Below, piece by piece: positions 21,099 to 58,939 of a stretch of 64,000 bases of DNA. The stretch is from Nitrospinaceae bacterium (GTDB lineage Bacteria > Nitrospinota > Nitrospinia > Nitrospinales > JACRGP01), in contig JAJDBB010000096.1 in NCBI GenBank assembly GCA_029261555.1, forward strand, positions 35,623-99,622. The letters run 5' to 3'. Both the position numbers and the translations under genes were made by a program. Within the stretch, counting starts at the first letter, position 1; each line of letters opens with the position of its first letter. The notes below the pieces were generated by a model. The model searched no databases and was not told the origin of the DNA. It was given only the letters and a program-made list of their open reading frames with translations.

Positions 21099-21117
21099 AG
21101 TTTAAGGAAAAATATTT
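21099..21117. repeat. 19-nt copy of a dispersed intergenic motif (AGTTTAAGGAAAAATATTT)
   Basis: Identical to 58846-58864 and related (reverse complement) to the tandem repeat at 35.1-35.4 kb. It lies in the divergent rlmM/kinase intergenic region and overlaps the inverted repeat GGAAAA-ATA-TTTTCC. Confidence 0.6.
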
Positions 21118-21173: not shown

Positions 21174-23165
21174 ATGACCTTGTCCGACAATAAATTCAAT
21201 CGACTAGGAAACTCCCTGGGATTTTTGTTGGCCGTCGGGGCGGTGATGCTGGACAAGTTGTCTCCCGTGTCAGCAGGAGGCGGGCCGGTTTTCGCCGTGC
21301 TTGCCATTTTGGGTTTGATCCTTGGAAGCAGGAAAGCGGTTCTGGTTGGCGCCATGCTTGGGTTTGCGCTGGTTCTTTTCGGGGCTTTTTATTATTTTCC
21401 GGATCGGGTCGAGGAGCAGGCTTTGATCTATCCTTTTCTGAGCCTGGTCATGATGGGCGGGGCCGGCTATCTTTGTTTGCTGGGGATGAATCCTAGGGCG
21501 GATTCTTCGGAGGCGCATAAGGACCGGGAGGCAGAGTTCCCAGGCCGTTTAAACCAATTGGAAGACGCATTGGATCAATCTGAGAAGGATCGGGACACGA
21601 TTCAACTGCATAAAGACGTCGCTATGTTTTCCAATGAAAATCGTCCGGTGGAAGAGGCCATGCATTTTGGAATCGAGCGGGTGTGCAAAGAGACGGGCTG
21701 GCCGGTGGGACATGTGTATTTTCCCAAAAGCGGCTCCATGGATAAGTTGCTTCCCTCTGGAATCTGGTATCTGGAGGATGCGGCGCGCTTTGAAACTTTC
21801 CGAAAAATAACTGAAGACACTCCATTGACCTCGGGCGAGGGTCTTCCGGGGAGAGTGACGTCTAGCGGAAAGCCCGCGTGGATCATGGACGTCACCAAGG
21901 ATTCGAATTTTCCTCGCGCCAAGCTGGCCAAGGACATCGGCGTTCGCGCCGGGTTCGCGTTTCCCATTCTCATTGAAAAGGAAGTGGTCGGGGTGATGGA
22001 GTTTTTTTCGGAACAGGCCGCAGAGCCGGACGCGGTTTTGTTAGAAACCATGGGCAATATTGGAACCCAGCTGGGACGAGTTTTGGAACGGCACCGCTCG
22101 CAAAACGAACAAAAGATTCTGCTCGGAAAACTTGAGGGGCGAATCAAGGAATTAAAATGCATGTACGACGCCACCAACCTTATCCGAACGGCGGCGAACA
22201 TCGAGGACGTTTTTAACTCCCTCGGCGCCGTTATTGCCCTGGGATTGAGATACCCGGATAGCGTCTGCGTTAAAATTATTTTTGACGATCGGCAATATGT
22301 CACAAGGAATTTTGAAACGACGCCTTGGAAATACGCCGGGGATATTATCGTCGAAGGCGAGAACCGGGGCCGCATTGACGTGTACTATCATGAGTCTGGA
22401 GTGGATAAGGGTTCGAATGAAATTTTGGAGGAAGAGCGTGCGCTCATCAATAATCTGGCTAATTTACTGAGCGAATCTATAAAAACCAATCAGGCCCAGG
22501 CGCAACGGGAGACGTCCAGAAAGCAGTTGCGAAAATTGTATAATCGCCTCGAACTGGTGCGCGAGGAGGAGCGCAAGAGAATCGCCCGCGAGGTTCACGA
22601 CGAACTGGGCCAGGTGTTGACCACTTTGAAACTGGAATTGTCGCTTCTCGAAGGCAAGCTGGATAAGGAGGATAATGACTATGGAGAGAACACGGGGTTT
22701 ATGCGAGGATTAATTGATGATACTATTCAAGCGGTGAAGCAAATCTCGTCGGATTTGCGTCCTCCCATTCTAGACGTCCTGGGTTTGATCGAGGCGTTGC
22801 GTTGGCAGGGGCAGGAGTTTGCCAAGCGGACCGGAATTAGATTTGAATTGCAAACCGATCCCGAGGAAATTCGCCTCGATTCCGAGCGATCCACCACCTT
22901 ATTTCGGATTTTTCAGGAAACCCTGACCAATGTCGCCCGTCACGCAAAAGCCCGTAATGTCAAGGTGACTATAATCGAGCGTGAAGGAAACTTGGAAATG
23001 CGCGTGCGGGACGATGGAATAGGAATTGGAAAGGAAAAAGAAGGCGACCCGCATTCCCTGGGACTTTTGGGTATTCGCGAGAGAGTTCTGGTTTGGAATG
23101 GACGAGTGGAATTCATCGGCGTCCCTGGAGAGGGCACGACTGTAACTATTGACATTAAACTATAG
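21174..23165 (+). CDS. Sensor histidine kinase, membrane N-terminus + GAF-like regions + HisKA_3/HATPase
   Basis: Hydrophobic N-terminus and a NarX/DegS-type H-box (REVHDELGQ). ATPase motifs are DDGIGI and GLLGIRERV. Confidence 0.85.
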   Translation: MTLSDNKFNRLGNSLGFLLAVGAVMLDKLSPVSAGGGPVFAVLAILGLILGSRKAVLVGAMLGFALVLFGAFYYFPDRVEEQALIYPFLSLVMMGGAGYLCLLGMNPRADSSEAHKDREAEFPGRLNQLEDALDQSEKDRDTIQLHKDVAMFSNENRPVEEAMHFGIERVCKETGWPVGHVYFPKSGSMDKLLPSGIWYLEDAARFETFRKITEDTPLTSGEGLPGRVTSSGKPAWIMDVTKDSNFPRAKLAKDIGVRAGFAFPILIEKEVVGVMEFFSEQAAEPDAVLLETMGNIGTQLGRVLERHRSQNEQKILLGKLEGRIKELKCMYDATNLIRTAANIEDVFNSLGAVIALGLRYPDSVCVKIIFDDRQYVTRNFETTPWKYAGDIIVEGENRGRIDVYYHESGVDKGSNEILEEERALINNLANLLSESIKTNQAQAQRETSRKQLRKLYNRLELVREEERKRIAREVHDELGQVLTTLKLELSLLEGKLDKEDNDYGENTGFMRGLIDDTIQAVKQISSDLRPPILDVLGLIEALRWQGQEFAKRTGIRFELQTDPEEIRLDSERSTTLFRIFQETLTNVARHAKARNVKVTIIEREGNLEMRVRDDGIGIGKEKEGDPHSLGLLGIRERVLVWNGRVEFIGVPGEGTTVTIDIKL

Positions 23166-23171
23166 GAAATT

Positions 23172-23819
23172 ATGGTTGCGCAAGCGAGCAAGAAAATTGA
23201 AATTTTAATTGCCGACGATCATCCCGTATTCCGCCAGGGGTTGAAACGCGTGCTTTTGGAAACTTCGGATCTACACGTTGCGGAGGAGGCGGGATGTTGC
23301 AACGAACTATTGGATAAAGTCCGGGAACAGAATTTCGATATCATCCTTTTGGACATCTCCATGTCCGGAACCAACGCCCTGGATACCTTGAAGCAGTTGA
23401 AAATCGAAAAACCCAAATTGCCCATTCTGATGGTCAGCGTTTATCCAGAAGAGCATTACGCCGTCCGGTTTATGAAAGCGGGCGCGGCGGGATATGTCAA
23501 CAAAGAGAGTTCGCCGGAGGAGTTGCTGGAGGCCGTGCGTAAAGTTTCCTCCGGAGGCAAGTACATGAGTTTCGCTCTAAAGGAACGTTTGGCGTTCGAT
23601 TTTTCCGACAGCGACAAACAGCCCCACGAGTTGCTCTCCGACCGGGAGTATCAGGTTTTTTGCATGATCTCCTCGGGCCAATCGCTCACGCTGATCGCCA
23701 AAGAGCTTTGCCTGAGCGTCAAGACCGTGGGAACCCACCGGACCCACATCCTGGAAAAAATGAAAATGAAAAACAACGCCCAGTTGATTCAGTACGCGAT
23801 TCTCAATCAGATTATTTGA
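23172..23819 (+). CDS. NarL/FixJ-family response regulator (REC + LuxR HTH)
   Basis: ILIADDHPVFRQG...DIILLDISMSG, with LSDREYQVFCMISSGQSLTLIAKELCLSVKTVGTHRTHILEKM. Confidence 0.9.
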   Translation: MVAQASKKIEILIADDHPVFRQGLKRVLLETSDLHVAEEAGCCNELLDKVREQNFDIILLDISMSGTNALDTLKQLKIEKPKLPILMVSVYPEEHYAVRFMKAGAAGYVNKESSPEELLEAVRKVSSGGKYMSFALKERLAFDFSDSDKQPHELLSDREYQVFCMISSGQSLTLIAKELCLSVKTVGTHRTHILEKMKMKNNAQLIQYAILNQII

Positions 23820-25973: not shown

Positions 25974-27524
25974 TCAGGTCGAAGGTTTGTAGCCTTTCAC
26001 TCCGTCCAGCGTTGCGTTTTCGAAGTCGGCTCCTTCCAGGCAGGCTCCTGAAAGGTCGGCTTTTTTTAACGAAGCGTAGCCTAGCTTCGCGCCGTCGAGC
26101 GCCGTGTTGGAAAAGTCGGCGCCGTCCAGTTTTGATTTTTCCAGGTCGGCGCGTTGGAGGTTGGCGCCCTTGAGCTTTGCGTTTTCAAGAGTGGCTTCGC
26201 AAAATTTGGCTCCCGCGAATTGAGAGTTTTCCAGCACGGCGTCTTGGAGGTCGGCTTTTTGAAAATCCGCGCCAAAAAACAGAACGTTTGACGCCTGAGT
26301 TTCCCGCAAAATCGCTTCGGTAAAATTGGCGCGGCTGAGATCCGAACCGGTTAAATTGGCTTTGGTGAAATCGGCTCCCGTGAGGTCGGCGCCGCTCAAA
26401 TCGGAGTCTTCCAGGTCGACGCCTTCCAGTTTGGCGCGGCTCAATTGGGCCTTATCCAGCCTGGCTCCCTTTGCCTTGGCGTTGACGAGTTTGATTCTTC
26501 CCATGTTCGATCCAAACAATTTCACGTCGATCAAAATCGCGTCGTTGAGGTCGGCGATGCTGAGGTCGGATTCCGTAAGGTCCGCTCCCGTCAGGTCGGC
26601 GCGTCTGAGTATGCAACCGCTCATTTTAGCGCGGTACATGGCGGCGTTATGGAATCGGGATTTTGTCAATTCGGCGCTGGTGAAGTCGACGCGGCTGAGG
26701 TTGGCGTCTTTGAAATTTGCGGCCACTATCTTGGCGCCTTTTATTTGTGCCCGGTTTAAATTTGCGGATTCAAAATTGGATTCGAAAAACACCCCGACAC
26801 TCAATCTAGAGTCGCTCAGATCGGCTTTGAAAAAATTGGCGCCGTTAAAGTTGCCGCGCGAAAGATCGGCCTCCAGGATTTTAGCTTCGCTGAAGTCGCA
26901 CCCGGAGCAATCGGCTTTTTGCATTTGCACGTGTTGCAGGTTGGCTTCGGTCAAAACGGCGTCCTTCAATTTAGCGAGGTTGAGCACGGCGTTTTCCAGG
27001 GAGGCTTTGGAGAAGTTGGCGCCCGAGAGGTCGGCTGCCTTTAATACGATTTCATCAAGAACGGCCTCCTGGAAATTGGCTCCGGTCAGTATGGCTTCAG
27101 AGAAGTCGGCGTCTTCAAGCGTGCGATGGGAAAAATCCATCGCCGCCATATTGGCGGAAATGAACTTGGCTCCGCGGAAATTGACGTCCGTCAGATCGGC
27201 GTTCTCCAGATTGGCCTCGGTGAAATCCGCGTTTTCCAGATTGGCTTTGGAGAGATTGGCCCCCGAGAGGTCGGCTTCGTTGAAAAGCGCGTTTTCTAAA
27301 ACGGTTTCAGAAAGATTGGCGTCGGCGAGGACGGCTTGGGTGAAGTCTGCGTTTTCCAGATTGGATTTGGCGAAGTTGGCTCCGCTCAAGTCGGCTCCTA
27401 CTAGGGAAAGCTCGGATAAATCCAGATCCGACAAATCCTTCCCGGCGAGGGAAACGCGTTCCTCGCCTTCTGGAGGATCGTCCAAAAGCGTGTTCTCAAT
27501 TTCTTCTCGGGTCATGGTTGCCAT
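25974..27524 (-). CDS. Pentapeptide-repeat protein (516 aa)
   Basis: Almost the whole length is A(D/N)LxX-type repeats, e.g. ADLSGANFSKASLENAVLNLAKLKDAVLTEANLQ. Confidence 0.9.
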   Translation of the reverse strand: MATMTREEIENTLLDDPPEGEERVSLAGKDLSDLDLSELSLVGADLSGANFAKSNLENADFTQAVLADANLSETVLENALFNEADLSGANLSKANLENADFTEANLENADLTDVNFRGAKFISANMAAMDFSHRTLEDADFSEAILTGANFQEAVLDEIVLKAADLSGANFSKASLENAVLNLAKLKDAVLTEANLQHVQMQKADCSGCDFSEAKILEADLSRGNFNGANFFKADLSDSRLSVGVFFESNFESANLNRAQIKGAKIVAANFKDANLSRVDFTSAELTKSRFHNAAMYRAKMSGCILRRADLTGADLTESDLSIADLNDAILIDVKLFGSNMGRIKLVNAKAKGARLDKAQLSRAKLEGVDLEDSDLSGADLTGADFTKANLTGSDLSRANFTEAILRETQASNVLFFGADFQKADLQDAVLENSQFAGAKFCEATLENAKLKGANLQRADLEKSKLDGADFSNTALDGAKLGYASLKKADLSGACLEGADFENATLDGVKGYKPST

Positions 27525-33407: not shown

Positions 33408-35123
33408 TTACGGATCCGATTTGCCTTTGTCCTGAAATTCGTAAAGATTGGCTTCGTTCGGGATCAGGTTGAACGCGTTCCCGTAAAAATAAAACATGTA
33501 AGGGGGCTGTCGAAAAACTTTTTTCATCGACGGCGCGACGGCGGATATATCCGCGCGTTTATCCACGAGCAGGTACTTGAAGTTTTTTTCGCGGAACAGG
33601 GCTTCGAACTGGTTGGCGTTCAACTGGTCTACGATGGCTTTATTTTTGGCGACCACGCTGGCGGGCGTCCTCGACAATTTCCCGAAAGCCATGGGTTTTT
33701 GATGGAGGGTCTGGTAATACATTTGCAATACTGCCGGCTTGGTTTCCAGGTCGATCAGCGCGCCGTTTCCCGGCTGGGCCTGAAGGTATCGAACGAACCC
33801 GGGAACGGGGATCTGGATGACGGGAATGGGACTTGGAAGGTATTCTATAAAAAAGATTAGTAATAACAGGGCCATTCCGTTGCGGTCTTTTCCGTTCCGC
33901 CGGTAAAAATGTTTTAGTCCGACCGCGAAGATAACGGCGGCGGCGAGATAAACCATCACCATCATTCGGACCGGCGTGCCTGAAAGTTTTAAGGGAGGGA
34001 ACAGGAATTCAAAAAATAAATAAGGCATAGAAATCCCGGGAACCGTGCGCCCCCAAACATGAAGCGAGGGTCCAAGGGCCAACAGCCAGAATATCAGAGC
34101 CAGAAAAAACCAGACTCCGAGATCGTGGTCCTGGATTCGCCTTCTCTGTTTCCAAACCAATACGAGCATTAACAAAACGGAAAGCCCTAAATAGACGCTG
34201 TGCTCGTGCGGGTTTTCTGGTAATTGCGACCAGTAGGGCCTGGTCAGCGAGGCGAAACGCCAATGGTTTCCCGGAATCGTAGACGCCAGCAAATCCATGG
34301 AAAACCCGTCCGTGGAGTGGCTTCCCGCTAAAGGGTCTTGTAAGCCGGTCTGGATCAGGAGGCCCGCCAAAACCCCGCTGGTGGACAGGGTCGCGGCGAG
34401 GAAAACAAGGGAGTATTTTAAATATCCGCTTTGCAAAAAATAAAACGGCTTTTTTTGCCAAGCGGCGCGCCAGACGTATGTCAGGATTCCCGCCAGGACG
34501 CAAAACGTAAAATAGTAATAATTGCACAGCAGGACGAGAAACAGGGTAAAAGCGGAAGCCAGGGCGCGGAGAATATTTGGGCGGGCGATCAATTGTCGCC
34601 AAAAGAGTATAAAAAGAGGAACCCATTCCATGGAGACGAGTTGCAAATGGCCCTCGGCAAAGGCGAAATGATAATTGCAAAATGTAAATAAATAACCGCC
34701 CGCCAAACTGGGCCAGTAGGCTTTGGTGACGTCGTACGCCAGCCAAAACGCCGTGAGTCCCGACGCCACAAACCCAAAAACGACGATGAAGTTATAGGTC
34801 TGTATGGGAGTCAGGAATTTTAAAAGAAAAATACCTAAAAAGCCGTTGAATGGACTCAGAGCGTGGGCCAGAACCGTGGAGCCATGAGGGAAATGCACCA
34901 TCGCAGTGTGCCAGGGGAGTTGGTGAAGATTCGTCAACGATTTATCGACCCACCAAAGGCTCCAGATTGTTTGCAGATGAGCGACGCCCGCCCCGTAATA
35001 GTGGGACGAGAAATAAGAAAGAAGGGGGAAGGTGAGTAGGAAAAAACAGGAAAAATAAAAGAAACCCGGCGCGGCGCCGAATTTGAGCCAGAGGATTCGA
35101 TTGTTAACAAGAAATTTGATCAT
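33408..35123 (-). CDS. Polytopic integral membrane protein with C-terminal soluble region (possibly GT-C-like)
   Basis: 571 aa with many hydrophobic segments and no soluble-enzyme motifs. It is first in the minus-strand cluster. Function unknown. Confidence 0.6.
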   Translation of the reverse strand: MIKFLVNNRILWLKFGAAPGFFYFSCFFLLTFPLLSYFSSHYYGAGVAHLQTIWSLWWVDKSLTNLHQLPWHTAMVHFPHGSTVLAHALSPFNGFLGIFLLKFLTPIQTYNFIVVFGFVASGLTAFWLAYDVTKAYWPSLAGGYLFTFCNYHFAFAEGHLQLVSMEWVPLFILFWRQLIARPNILRALASAFTLFLVLLCNYYYFTFCVLAGILTYVWRAAWQKKPFYFLQSGYLKYSLVFLAATLSTSGVLAGLLIQTGLQDPLAGSHSTDGFSMDLLASTIPGNHWRFASLTRPYWSQLPENPHEHSVYLGLSVLLMLVLVWKQRRRIQDHDLGVWFFLALIFWLLALGPSLHVWGRTVPGISMPYLFFEFLFPPLKLSGTPVRMMVMVYLAAAVIFAVGLKHFYRRNGKDRNGMALLLLIFFIEYLPSPIPVIQIPVPGFVRYLQAQPGNGALIDLETKPAVLQMYYQTLHQKPMAFGKLSRTPASVVAKNKAIVDQLNANQFEALFREKNFKYLLVDKRADISAVAPSMKKVFRQPPYMFYFYGNAFNLIPNEANLYEFQDKGKSDP

Positions 35124-35130
35124 AGAAGAC

Positions 35131-35380
35131 GCCAGGCAAGCGCCTGGAGGCAGATGTTTGCGATTGGATAATTTACCTTAAACTGACAACCGATCACTAC
35201 CAGCTTTTCTTTTACTGAGACCAGCGTCACGCTGGCCGAGCGTTGCCCGGCCAGGCAAGTGCCTGGAGGCAGATATTTGCAATTGGATAATTTTCCTTAA
35301 ACTGACAACTGTCAACCGATCACTGCCAGCTTTTCTTTTACTGAGGCCAGCGTCACGCTGGCCGGGAGTTGCCCGGCCAG
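35131..35380. repeat. Tandem direct repeat, two full units (119 and 126 nt) plus the first 5 nt of a third
   Basis: Unit 1 is 35131-35249 and unit 2 is 35250-35375. By manual alignment they differ by about 9 substitutions and a 7-nt insertion (TGTCAAC). Each unit carries hairpins CCAGGC-AAGY-GCCTGG and CCAGCG-TCA-CGCTGG. Confidence 0.9.
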
Positions 35381-35388
35381 TAAAACGC

Positions 35389-35418
35389 TTGACACCTTAA
35401 AAAATAAAAGATTATACT
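35389..35418 (+). promoter_or_regulatory. Candidate sigma70-type promoter TTGACA-N18-TATACT
   Basis: TTGACA at 35389-35394 and TATACT at 35413-35418. It lies immediately after the tandem repeat, upstream of the plus-strand block. Confidence 0.4.
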
Positions 35419-35451
35419 TGGCTTGCATATTCCCTCAAAATTAAAAAATCG

Positions 35452-35478
35452 ACCCCGTTTCGGGGTTTTTAATTTTTG
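35452..35478 (+). terminator. Terminator-like hairpin ACCCCG-TTT-CGGGGT followed by TTTTTAATTTTT, within the putative leader
   Basis: Read directly from the sequence. A-tract upstream and T-tract downstream. It sits between the candidate promoter and the RBS/TTG start at 35513. Confidence 0.35.
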
Positions 35479-35512
35479 TCGTTTAATAATTTTTGTTTTA
35501 GGAGAAAAGCCA

Positions 35513-36136
35513 TTGAGCGAAGACAGCGAAGCCAAAAAGGATGAAAATGCCGCGGAAACTTCCGGAGTTGCGGACGACGCGTCGGAGCAAAGAGGCGAGC
35601 AGGATTCCCTTTCCGATTTGAGCGAACTCGAAAAGATTAAAAAGGAGCTTCAAAAGGAAAAGGAAAAAGCCGCCAAGGAACTGGAAGCCGGCGAGGGGGA
35701 AGAGGAGGACGTCCGCGAGGTCGATTATCTTCAAAAGCTGGTCACCCTGACCGTTCAATTCGATCACCATGTCGGCATGTTTTTAATGCCGGGTTATATC
35801 GACTGTGGAATGAAATACGACCATAAACTTGCAGACAGCTATCTGACGCATTTGAATTCCATCCAGGGATTTTTGCGGCTATTGGAGAAAGTGGACGGCG
35901 TCACCCGGGAACTGGTCACCAAGGATTGTATTATCAAGTTGCGCAACGTGGTTCAGCAAATTCACAAAAACCTGATCAAACCGTTATACCGGGAAGTGGA
36001 TTTGATGAAAAAGAAACCCAAAATGGAAAATCTGGACAACTTCAAGGAAAGCTGGAACGAGCGGCTTTTGGACTTTCAGAAAACCTGTGATTTTGAGTAC
36101 CAGAGACTCGACGTTAAAGGGTTTATGGTGAACTGA
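35513..36136 (+). CDS. Hypothetical protein with poly-acidic/coiled-coil N-terminus
   Basis: TTG at 35513 is preceded by AGGAG with an 8-nt spacer; the ORF-track start at 35423 would include the hairpin. The N-terminus reads MSEDSEAKKDENAAE...AGEGEEED. No family was recognised. Confidence 0.5.
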   Translation: MSEDSEAKKDENAAETSGVADDASEQRGEQDSLSDLSELEKIKKELQKEKEKAAKELEAGEGEEEDVREVDYLQKLVTLTVQFDHHVGMFLMPGYIDCGMKYDHKLADSYLTHLNSIQGFLRLLEKVDGVTRELVTKDCIIKLRNVVQQIHKNLIKPLYREVDLMKKKPKMENLDNFKESWNERLLDFQKTCDFEYQRLDVKGFMVN

Positions 36137-36264
36137 CGCCAGCCAATCGCTGCCGGTTAAAAGTTGACGGTTTAAACGCTACTCCCTTGCAGGACGGGCG
36201 GCGCCAAAAGGCCCAACATTCCAGAAAACCAATCATTTAAATTTTTAGCGGAAGAACCACCCCA

Positions 36265-36295
36265 AACCCCTCTTTGTTAAGAGGGGTTTTAAATT
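36265..36295 (+). terminator. Hairpin AACCCCTCTT-TGTT-AAGAGGGGTT followed by TTAAATT
   Basis: 10-bp perfect stem read from the sequence. The T-tract is short, so termination may be partial. Confidence 0.45.
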
Positions 36296-36387
36296 GCCTC
36301 TAGGCGTTTGCCTGGGGCGAAACGCTCCCTTTCTTTAATATTGCGCGGATTCGAGGTTTGTGGCCGTGTCAACGATTTAGGATATAT

Positions 36388-39023: not shown

Positions 39024-39061
39024 CCTTAACTTAACTAAAGAGTTCATGAGAGGCGCGAGCA

Positions 39062-46605: not shown

Positions 46606-46699
46606 GACGTCCACGCGCCGATCCCGCCCGAAGGCAAGACTGATTTGCAAATCCAATGCGGCTTGCGGCGCTCGCCATATAAGAGGCGAGTTACTTTGT

Positions 46700-46714
46700 C
46701 CAGCGGCACGCTGG
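46700..46714. repeat. Variant copy of the CCAGCG-N3-CGCTGG hairpin motif (loop GCA)
   Basis: CCAGCGGCACGCTGG read from the sequence. It is followed by TCTTAAAAGAAAGGGGTCTTTTT, a near copy of the right half of the terminator at 46570-46605. Confidence 0.4.
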
Positions 46715-46756
46715 TCTTAAAAGAAAGGGGTCTTTTTAATTTTTCGCTTCGAGAAC

Positions 46757-58674: not shown

Positions 58675-58820
58675 TGAAACACCTCGCTGGGGAGGCCTCT
58701 AGAGGCAGATAGTGTAACGTTTAAAGGGAATGGTTCAATTACTGGAGAGTGTGCAACCGTTACTTTTCCGCCAGCGGTACGTCGACCACAGTGAACATTG
58801 ATAAACACGGGAAAAAATTT

Positions 58821-58901
58821 TGGCAGTGGTCGACCGATAGTTGTCAGTTTAAGGAAAAATATTTCATCTTCAACCACTGGGTCCAGCGTCACGCTGGCCG
58901 G
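58821..58901. repeat. Rearranged partial copy of the 35.1-kb repeat unit
   Basis: The reverse complement of 58821-58864 aligns with unit 2 of the tandem repeat. It shares TTTTCCTTAAACTGACAACT and CACTGCCA, about 36 of 44 nt by manual alignment. The hairpin CCAGCGTCACGCTGGCCGG at 58883-58901 is in direct orientation. Confidence 0.7.
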
Positions 58902-58939
58902 CAATTCTTTCGCCCCCAGGGGTAACCAGGGTCGTTTTC

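Follow-up and report, generated by a model that had tools for sequence, protein, structure and literature searches.

The 64,000-nt stretch of DNA analyzed here (hereafter the window; all coordinates, and all matches said to lie in the window, refer to this whole stretch) comes from contig JAJDBB010000096.1 of a Nitrospinaceae bacterium. A minus-strand gene for a membrane protein and a plus-strand promoter-like site are separated in it by a tandem array at 35131-35380, the only long-period non-coding array that Tandem Repeats Finder reports for the window (period 126, 2.0 copies, 88% matches, score 381). An earlier reading of this DNA from its letters alone, called the sequence-only reading below, had described two near-identical units, differing by about 9 substitutions and a 7-nt insertion in unit 2, together with the first 5 nt of a third unit. 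The tandem repeat is real by both Tandem Repeats Finder and alignment: the units lie head-to-tail and differ, in a global alignment, by 8 substitutions and one 7-nt indel, leaving 93% identity over aligned bases. As for the 7-nt indel, both outgroup copies of the unit have the long form of this heptad region, so unit 1 has probably lost 7 nt between GTTG repeats, and a gain in unit 2 is less likely; one of these copies lies at 58.8 kb and the other in locus L021 (L numbers denote loci fetched by our scans) of OFTM44, a Nitrospinaceae metagenome-assembled genome (MAG; GCA_029261575.1). The third unit is present as well, longer than had been claimed but degenerate, and the palindrome noted in unit 2 was located (Table 1). 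A small open reading frame (ORF) inside the array (35178-35315, minus strand, 45 aa) was treated as spurious.

Each unit consists of hairpin A, AGGCAGAT, an A/T-rich core of ~70 nt, GAG(A/G), hairpin B (CCAGCG-TCA-CGCTGG), and hairpin C. The sequence-only reading had given A and B exactly and counted two hairpins per unit; there are three, with C following the pattern CCG[A/G]G-nGTTG-CCCGG in both units (at 35236 and 35362). Once C is added, hairpins B, C, and the next A therefore abut at the unit junction with no spacer, and this B-C-A triple is predicted on both strands. Perfect CCAG-NN-loop-NN-CTGG hairpins occur six times in the window, compared to 0.12 expected. The array is strongly structured on both strands (folding z -4.8 and -4.2), and single units fold at z -2.1 to -3.4.

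Related copies lie elsewhere in the window. The signature hairpin, whose full form is GGGT-CCAGCG-TCA-CGCTGG-CCGG, produced 8 pattern matches (4 sites on 2 strands) in three intergenic regions, where 0.12 were expected; outside the array, hairpin B is found exactly at 58883 and with a changed loop at 46700. A covariance model, R1, built from 40 family hairpins gave four significant matches in the 64 kb, all on the plus strand. The match at 58883 belongs to an inverted and more diverged copy of the unit (58767-58899), which has an exact hairpin B at its end (58883-58897) and precedes a 68-aa membrane ORF (ATG 58940). This copy shares a degenerate B hairpin (58771-58787), tail-to-tail, with a sister element (58694-58787) that has a different interior and is homologous to ~2735-2816 of OFTM44 L021. 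All copies of the hairpins in the window are intergenic, including an inverted hairpin-A-like copy at 36.3 kb. The latter adjoins another dispersed module, which reads CATTTAAATTTTTAGCGGAAGAACCACCCC... followed by a terminator-like hairpin, CCCCTCTTTGTTAAGAGGGG, and which also adjoins hairpin B in L107 and L038. The four plus-strand copies of hairpin B occupy 35213-35243, 35339-35369, 46692-46722, and 58875-58905, and GC skew is positive throughout the window; with n=4, this placement on one strand may reflect a replication-strand bias.

Comparison with OFTM44 revealed one copy that is present in one genome and absent from the other. SerA from the window is 90% identical to that of OFTM44 and 69% identical to that of Nitrospina gracilis, and an 11.8-kb piece of OFTM44 is collinear with 36.7-48.6 kb of the window at 81-87% nucleotide identity. 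Within this piece, the spacer between serA and a rotamase gene measures 229 nt in the window versus 83 nt in OFTM44, whose syntenic locus lacks 46606-46722. The segment that is missing there contains GGCAAGACTGATTTGCAAATCC (46633-46654) and a B-like hairpin, CCAGCGGCACGCTGG (46700-46714; 26.4 bits with model R1), along with sequence similar to the unit's 5' part; on its flanks, half of the shared terminator (~23-38 nt) is duplicated. Elsewhere, OFTM44 has ~110 nt of extra intergenic DNA (L241 9378-9494) relative to window 39027-39035, with no recognizable hairpin module.

A profile of both units also matched the copy in OFTM44 L021 (E 7e-8), which is at a non-orthologous site. The sequence-only reading had proposed to look for further copies in this genome and its relatives; those at 58767-58899 and in OFTM44 L021 show that the unit is dispersed. 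A profile of the core recovered all four copies (E 1e-21 to 1e-24, with OFTM44 L021 at 2e-21) and nothing beyond them in the ~1.6 Mb of fetched loci, ~70 kb of which are loci from named Nitrospinota genomes. Synteny arithmetic puts the end of an OFTM44 contig near window position 35423, which leaves ~40 nt to the tandem repeat and would fit an assembly break at repeated DNA.

The hairpin family extends well beyond these two genomes. We scanned one genome per species for exact CCAGCGTCACGCTGGCCG; most matches were due to chance in GC-rich genomes, and the matches listed include at least 11 loci from at least seven Nitrospinota assemblies. The cultured N. gracilis and N. watsonii are among the relatives with family members. 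Hairpin B was also found in intergenic matches on metagenome contigs, numbering dozens at least. The tetranucleotide before the hairpin, which lies outside the search pattern, is GGGT at 66 of 112 non-redundant sites and GAGT at 16. Elements share a common architecture that starts with a hairpin, continues with AGGCAGAT or AGCAGAAT and a variable interior of 0 to 90 nt, and ends with T(G/T)G(G/A)GT and hairpin B, often followed by CCGGGnnTTGCCCGG. Interiors are of several types, and their order and orientation vary between loci: the two element types that lie tail-to-tail at 58.7-58.9 kb have the opposite order in L021, and L196 has the arrangement B-23 nt-B. Among 35 non-canonical sites in the same frame, 22 keep both inner pairs complementary, compared to ~2 expected, with four inner-pair types represented. 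Because complementarity is kept at these sites, we conclude from the comparison that the hairpin stem is under selection and is maintained by compensatory changes.

Placement is independent of strand and of the identity of neighboring genes. The fetched loci contain 76 intergenic occurrences; no orientation is preferred with respect to flanking genes (++12, --14, -+11, +-8), and the nearest 77 ORFs match 101 unrelated Pfam families. By our reading of the orientation table, the adjoining gene ends are more commonly 3' than 5'.

Ruminococcus and Clostridia MAGs (40-49% GC) carry an identical hairpin with the GGGT head. In one Ruminococcus flavefaciens MAG (L116 3138-3345), three tandem units of 68-82 nt, each ending in an identical GGGTCCAGCGTCACGCTGG hairpin, occupy intergenic DNA ahead of a WXG100-like gene, and in a Clostridia MAG the same hairpin is found at contig ends (L010 and L018). 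Hairpin B also forms the tip of two longer kinds of element in metagenome loci (L121, L129, L142, L232 and L190, L147, L166, L224): the first has the frame cccatcgcacgttaatattgg, hairpin B, cttgcggcgggg and an upstream gggcagacgttcgct...gagcccc hairpin, and the second a long inverted repeat, agagtctgtctgaaaaatcggaaatgg...cccatttttcagacagactct. A 20-mer, GTCCAGCGTCACGCTGGCCG, is also read in frame as SSVTLAE within PIN/VapC toxin genes from GC-rich bacteria (L130, L139, L141, L149, and others); these coding matches are coincidental and must be filtered from any census. Plasmid and phage collections gave chance coding matches only, and viral contigs gave only two stray matches.

Both the unit and its hairpins are scattered in mosaic combinations, in either orientation and next to unrelated genes, and one sister copy is absent from the same site in OFTM44. 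For these reasons we favor, with a probability of roughly 0.6, the reading that the array is two head-to-tail copies of a ~120-nt hairpin-bounded intergenic repeat belonging to a dispersed mosaic family of Nitrospinota, comparable to repetitive extragenic palindromic (REP) sequences, bacterial interspersed mosaic elements (BIMEs), and Correia elements. The array is probably not a control element made for its two flanking genes. This particular family of dispersed intergenic hairpin repeats is previously undescribed, and the kind of element is itself known; we found no paper containing the hairpin sequence or treating REP elements in Nitrospina, and nothing on the repeat content of Nitrospinota. 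Among the three candidates of the sequence-only reading, the element resembling a REP or a miniature inverted-repeat transposable element (MITE) is the one we prefer, without the MITE-type ends: we rejected MITE- or Correia-like ends, as there are no terminal inverted repeats between unit ends and the duplication around 46606-46722 is of a terminator half, not a short target-site duplication.

Under the REP-like reading, the tandem pair would have arisen by local duplication, through unequal recombination or slippage between hairpin clusters, and would then have diverged by the 8 substitutions and a 7-nt deletion. The family may have spread via a hairpin-recognizing single-stranded-DNA activity, such as a REP-associated tyrosine transposase (RAYT) or an IS200-like enzyme, or via recombination. 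The array would be transcribed within the leader of the membrane-gene mRNA and give it about six stable hairpins, one of which stops 8 nt short of the AUG; these might influence the stability or translation of the mRNA incidentally, and would not amount to a dedicated switch.

Several observations weigh against the REP-like reading. The full-length unit type was found only four times, three in the window and one in OFTM44, and the copy counts cover the window and the matches listed rather than a whole genome. Transcription of the array is a prediction from matches to promoter consensus sequences. The classic REP head, GTAG, is absent, with GGGT or GAGT in its place, and tblastn with approximate IS200/IS608 TnpA queries found no transposase or RAYT in the window or the Nitrospinota loci; the space searched for transposases was the window plus fetched loci, ~1.6 Mb, a small part of any genome. 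Nor is there a transposase among the 25 families listed of the 101 matched by the 77 flanking ORFs, and an IS200-like match in L057 was discarded because it lies in an unrelated Planctomycetota locus of 68% GC. Since the head is not GTAG and no RAYT was found in the sequence searched, the family is at most a candidate member of the REP-RAYT system proper. Ruminococcus MAGs carry an unchanged hairpin B, which is unusual given that REP sequences are normally genus-specific. The remaining points concern the core. In all three loci it faces the same-strand downstream gene, encoding the 571-aa membrane protein, a 68-aa transmembrane protein, and a signal-peptide protein, and a 19-mer within it, AGTTTAAGGAAAAATATTT, is identical (19/19) at 58846-58864 and 21099-21117. 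The latter is a solo copy, with no hairpins or flanking similarity, and looks more like a binding site than decayed repeat DNA. In the operon downstream of this solo copy, 21174-23165 encodes a GAF histidine kinase and 23172-23819 a LuxR-type response regulator.

The core observations underlie a rival in which the unit core is a cis-regulatory module for envelope-related genes, whether a protein-binding site, an unconventional promoter, or a leader, with the GC-rich hairpins as accessories such as 5'-terminal stabilizers; having the unit in tandem would mean twice the regulatory input to the membrane gene. The core is ~72% conserved between non-orthologous sites (window 58800-58901 and OFTM44 L021 2615-2717), and the 19-mer has three matches in the window versus 0.02 expected. 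However, the core motifs of the tandem units carry 3-4 mismatches to the 19-mer of 21099 and 58846, the sample comprises only 3-4 loci, and neither at 21.1 kb nor at 58.8 kb is the motif followed by a sigma-70-like promoter. The core also has no consistent consensus structure beyond the terminal hairpin (that of the four core copies is weak, at -5.8 kcal/mol), and the hairpins bounding the unit adjoin unrelated genes in any orientation. We regard a regulatory module as possible but doubtful. Among specific promoter types, we rejected sigma-54, because TGGCAG and TGGCCG boxes are present while the GG-N10-GC spacing, as read from the sequence, is off by 1-2 nt in every copy. Readings of the core as a sigma-28 or extracytoplasmic-function sigma promoter, an integration host factor (IHF) site, or an UP element were inconsistent among copies, and a hand-picked promoter at 21.1 kb had a -35 box of only 3/6 and was not called by the promoter scan.

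If each unit were instead a small-RNA (sRNA) gene, the locus would be a tandem pair of paralogous sRNAs whose U/C-rich tracts (CUUUUCUUUU, UUCCUU) act as anti-Shine-Dalgarno seeds. Tandem sRNA paralogs are a known arrangement (PrrF1/2, NsiR1 arrays), and the stable unit folds, together with pyrimidine-rich single-stranded stretches when the plus strand is read, would suit such genes. Yet no unit has its own promoter and terminator: the sole internal promoter-like site is on the minus strand, in unit 2, the plus strand has no hairpin followed by a U-run, and the one weak terminator-like call (6 pairs) concerns hairpin A, read on the minus strand. Neither strand has the stronger folding signal, and the bounding hairpins are not biased toward one orientation with respect to transcription. 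Rfam gave no match in the window at the gathering threshold, nothing but noise in both loci when E was allowed up to 10, and nothing over the elements in 26 related loci; no tRNA or tmRNA was found. Of what the sequence-only reading had proposed to check by folding and Rfam, structure on both strands was borne out and a known RNA family was not, and its candidate sRNA or leader structures have neither a promoter-plus-terminator per unit nor an Rfam match; this candidate keeps some weight, as the conserved core is directed toward the gene downstream at every locus. We consider sRNA genes quite improbable. Its third candidate was a phase-variable spacer, in which gain or loss of 119-126-bp units would change how the divergent promoters are placed relative to the membrane gene. 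Two long direct repeats do lie within the divergent control region, and the OFTM44 contig end ~40 nt from the repeat edge would fit a break at repeated sequence, but the period is far above that of known simple-sequence contingency loci. Moreover, because the units differ by 8 substitutions and an indel (93% identity), the duplication is old rather than actively cycling, leaving this explanation with very little to recommend it. A neutral, locus-specific duplication would account for two copies with ordinary point-mutation divergence, but it would have no relatives elsewhere, and is refuted by those at 58.8, 46.7, and 36.3 kb, in OFTM44, in other Nitrospinota, and in metagenomes.

We also entertain, with considerable reserve, a broader idea. 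One hairpin, complete with its GGGT head, is shared without change by Nitrospinota, MAGs of Ruminococcus and Clostridia, and several unassigned metagenome lineages. As REPs are normally genus-specific, such sharing across phyla points to an enzyme that moves horizontally or to a host factor in common. GGGT-CCAGCG-TCA-CGCTGG-CC might thus mark an undescribed cross-phylum family of intergenic mosaic and tandem repeats dependent on a hairpin-specific mobilizing enzyme of this sort or on a conserved host factor able to read the hairpin, and/or the 19-nt core might be a portable regulatory site delivered to the 5' ends of envelope genes; on balance, we think this unlikely.

Other identities were rejected. 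The resemblance of GGUCCAGC...GCUGGC to a ribozyme of the hepatitis delta virus type is superficial, as the stem is a perfect 6 bp closed by a 3-nt loop, with no L3/P1.1 left, and there is no Rfam match. A type III toxin-antitoxin system (ToxIN/CptIN-like) does not fit, because known antitoxin repeats are shorter by a factor of three and the array is followed, not preceded, by the promoter-like site. The 207-aa ORF beyond the array has no Pfam match and nothing ToxN-like, its only PADLOC match being a non-significant one to an orphan methyltransferase (E 0.024); for defense and toxin families among the neighbors, PADLOC gave just two non-significant matches (E 0.024 and 0.037). A CRISPR array is excluded by the sequence between hairpins, which is itself repeated at 93% identity.

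Homologs of the flanking membrane protein align from residue 1, so, on this evidence, the ATG at 35123 is the true start of its gene; the NCBI copy (P0001) starts 74 codons past the conserved N-terminus (34902-35123, minus strand). The repeat begins 8 nt upstream of this ATG. The sequence-only reading had seen no Shine-Dalgarno sequence there, and indeed no GGAG, GAGG, or AGGA occurs within the preceding 18 nt, but the absence is unremarkable rather than unusual, because by a crude count only 22 of 59 gene starts in the window have such a motif. Its plus-strand promoter at 35389 corresponds to a strong promoter-like site that stands back-to-back with one on the minus strand (Table 1); the minus-strand site inside unit 2 is weaker. 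If the outer minus-strand site is used, both units would form a leader of ~280 nt on the membrane-gene mRNA. An intrinsic-terminator-like hairpin, GACCCCGTTTCGGGGTT, with a T-run lies at 35451-35477, ~30 nt past the plus-strand promoter-like site, and is followed by the 207-aa ORF, which starts with AGGAG-TTG at 35513. The promoter-like site and terminator-like hairpin within 35389-35512 could represent a short attenuator leader or an sRNA of ~50 nt. A 60-nt tandem repeat at 27213-27380 (2.8 copies, 67% matches) is coding and unrelated, lying inside a pentapeptide-repeat protein gene (25974-27524).

Table 1. Coordinates of the tandem array, its hairpins, related copies, and flanking features in the window.
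Feature	Position	Strand	Details
Repeat unit 1	35131-35249	+	119 nt; Tandem Repeats Finder, pairwise alignment, nhmmer E 6e-42
Repeat unit 2	35250-35375	+	126 nt; ancestral length, judged from outgroup copies
Degenerate third-unit start	35376-35391	+	11/16 bases match unit start; 3' part overlaps plus-strand -35 box
Hairpin A, unit 1	35132-35147		CCAGGC-AAGC-GCCTGG, then AGGCAGAT (35148-35155); ends 8 nt before AUG on minus-strand mRNA
Hairpin A, unit 2	35251-35266		CCAGGC-AAGT-GCCTGG, then AGGCAGAT (35267-35274)
Hairpin B, unit 1	35221-35235	+	CCAGCG-TCA-CGCTGG; signature of dispersed family; model R1, 33 bits
Hairpin B, unit 2	35347-35361	+	Model R1, 35.7 bits
Hairpin C, unit 1	35236-35250		CCGAG-CGTTG-CCCGG; one stem mismatch
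Hairpin C, unit 2	35362-35376		CCGGG-AGTTG-CCCGG; same B+C pair in OZ250172.1 (L032, L038)
A/T-rich core motif, unit 2	35285-35303	-	AGTTTAAGGAAAATTATCC; unit 1 copy at 35166-35184
Palindrome, unit 2	35303-35314		TGACAACTGTCA; part of degenerate heptad run; unit 1 lacks 7 nt here
Promoter-like site in unit 2	35287-35315	-	TTGACA-17-AATTAT; 10/12; long unit form only
Promoter-like site	35389-35418	+	TTGACA-18-TATACT; 11/12 consensus matches
Back-to-back promoter-like site	35411-35438	-	TTGAGG-16-TATAAT; 10/12 matches; consensus match only
Membrane protein gene	33408-35123	-	571 aa, polytopic; homologs carry PF19830
Other dispersed module adjoining hairpin-A-like copy	36234-36293		82% identical to OFTM44 L107 2059-2115
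Inverted hairpin-A-like copy	36297-36317	-	CCAGGCAAACGCCTAG + AGGCAAT
Segment missing from syntenic OFTM44 locus	46606-46722	+	~117 nt; alignment and synteny
Sister element, different interior	58694-58787	+	Hairpin, then AGGCAGATAGTGTAACGTTTAAAGGGA, degenerate B hairpin (58771-58787)
Inverted, more diverged unit copy	58767-58899	-	Unit positions 13-116; nhmmer E 6e-10; core profile E 1e-22
Solo 19-mer	21099-21117	+	AGTTTAAGGAAAAATATTT; 56 nt upstream of histidine kinase / LuxR-type regulator operon

Among known systems, the REP, BIME, and REPIN elements of Enterobacteria and Pseudomonas (including tandem BIME-2 arrays) are among the closest to this family. They too are short, GC-rich, imperfect palindromes with a conserved 5' tetranucleotide, strictly extragenic and dispersed, mixed with other motifs in variable order and orientation, sometimes in tandem, often located at the 3' ends of genes by terminators, and with compensatory changes in their stems. 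REP sequences are imperfect palindromes of 20-40 nt that can form a stem-loop in extragenic DNA, with which hairpins A, B, and C agree; they number tens to hundreds per genome, with a cognate RAYT (Y1/HUH transposase) gene flanked by them, and the 64-kb window has four B hairpins. Mosaic clusters are found in the B-C-A triple, the reversed order of L021, L196, and the 36.3-kb site. Beyond the head sequence, the lack of a RAYT in the sequence searched, and the identity of the signature hairpin across phyla (Nitrospinota, Ruminococcaceae), the units here differ from REP/BIME elements in carrying a conserved A/T-rich core of ~70 nt.

The Correia elements of Neisseria (CREE/NEMIS) are likewise ~100-155 bp long, frequent between genes, and often just upstream of them; they are transcribed into mRNA leaders, their terminal repeats form hairpins, and their A/T-rich internal sites (IHF, promoter boxes) can alter the expression of neighbors. 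They do, however, have 26-bp terminal inverted repeats and a TA target duplication, whereas the units here end in two different local hairpins and have no terminal inverted repeats, with no short target duplication seen. Palindrome-associated transposable elements (PATEs), which derive from IS200/IS605, are similar in being short and non-autonomous, with similar subterminal hairpins (CCAG...CTGG in A and B) and a conserved short sequence 5' of the hairpin; here, all four B copies in the window are on the same strand. In contrast, no IS200/IS605 transposase or TnpB was detected in the sequence searched. TAACTGA heptamer direct repeats are known from Beggiatoaceae and Cyanobacteria (PMC4679880), with at least two exact units in direct tandem on the sense strand, immediately before a start codon. 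The core heptads AAACTGA CAACTGT CAACCGA TCACTGC recall them, as does a position near a start codon without a Shine-Dalgarno sequence. We rejected this identity as well, because the heptads here are degenerate, with none exact, are antisense to the downstream gene, and lie inside a longer hairpin-bounded unit.

Nitrospinota are the main marine nitrite oxidizers, and the repeat family will recur in, and break assemblies of, genomes across the phylum. In annotation, the array should not be taken for a locus-specific riboswitch, an sRNA pair, or an operator. A hairpin element with a conserved A/T-rich core and so close to a start codon (8 nt) could modulate the expression of neighboring genes, as Correia and REP elements do, and the exact conservation of its signature hairpin across phyla is unusual.

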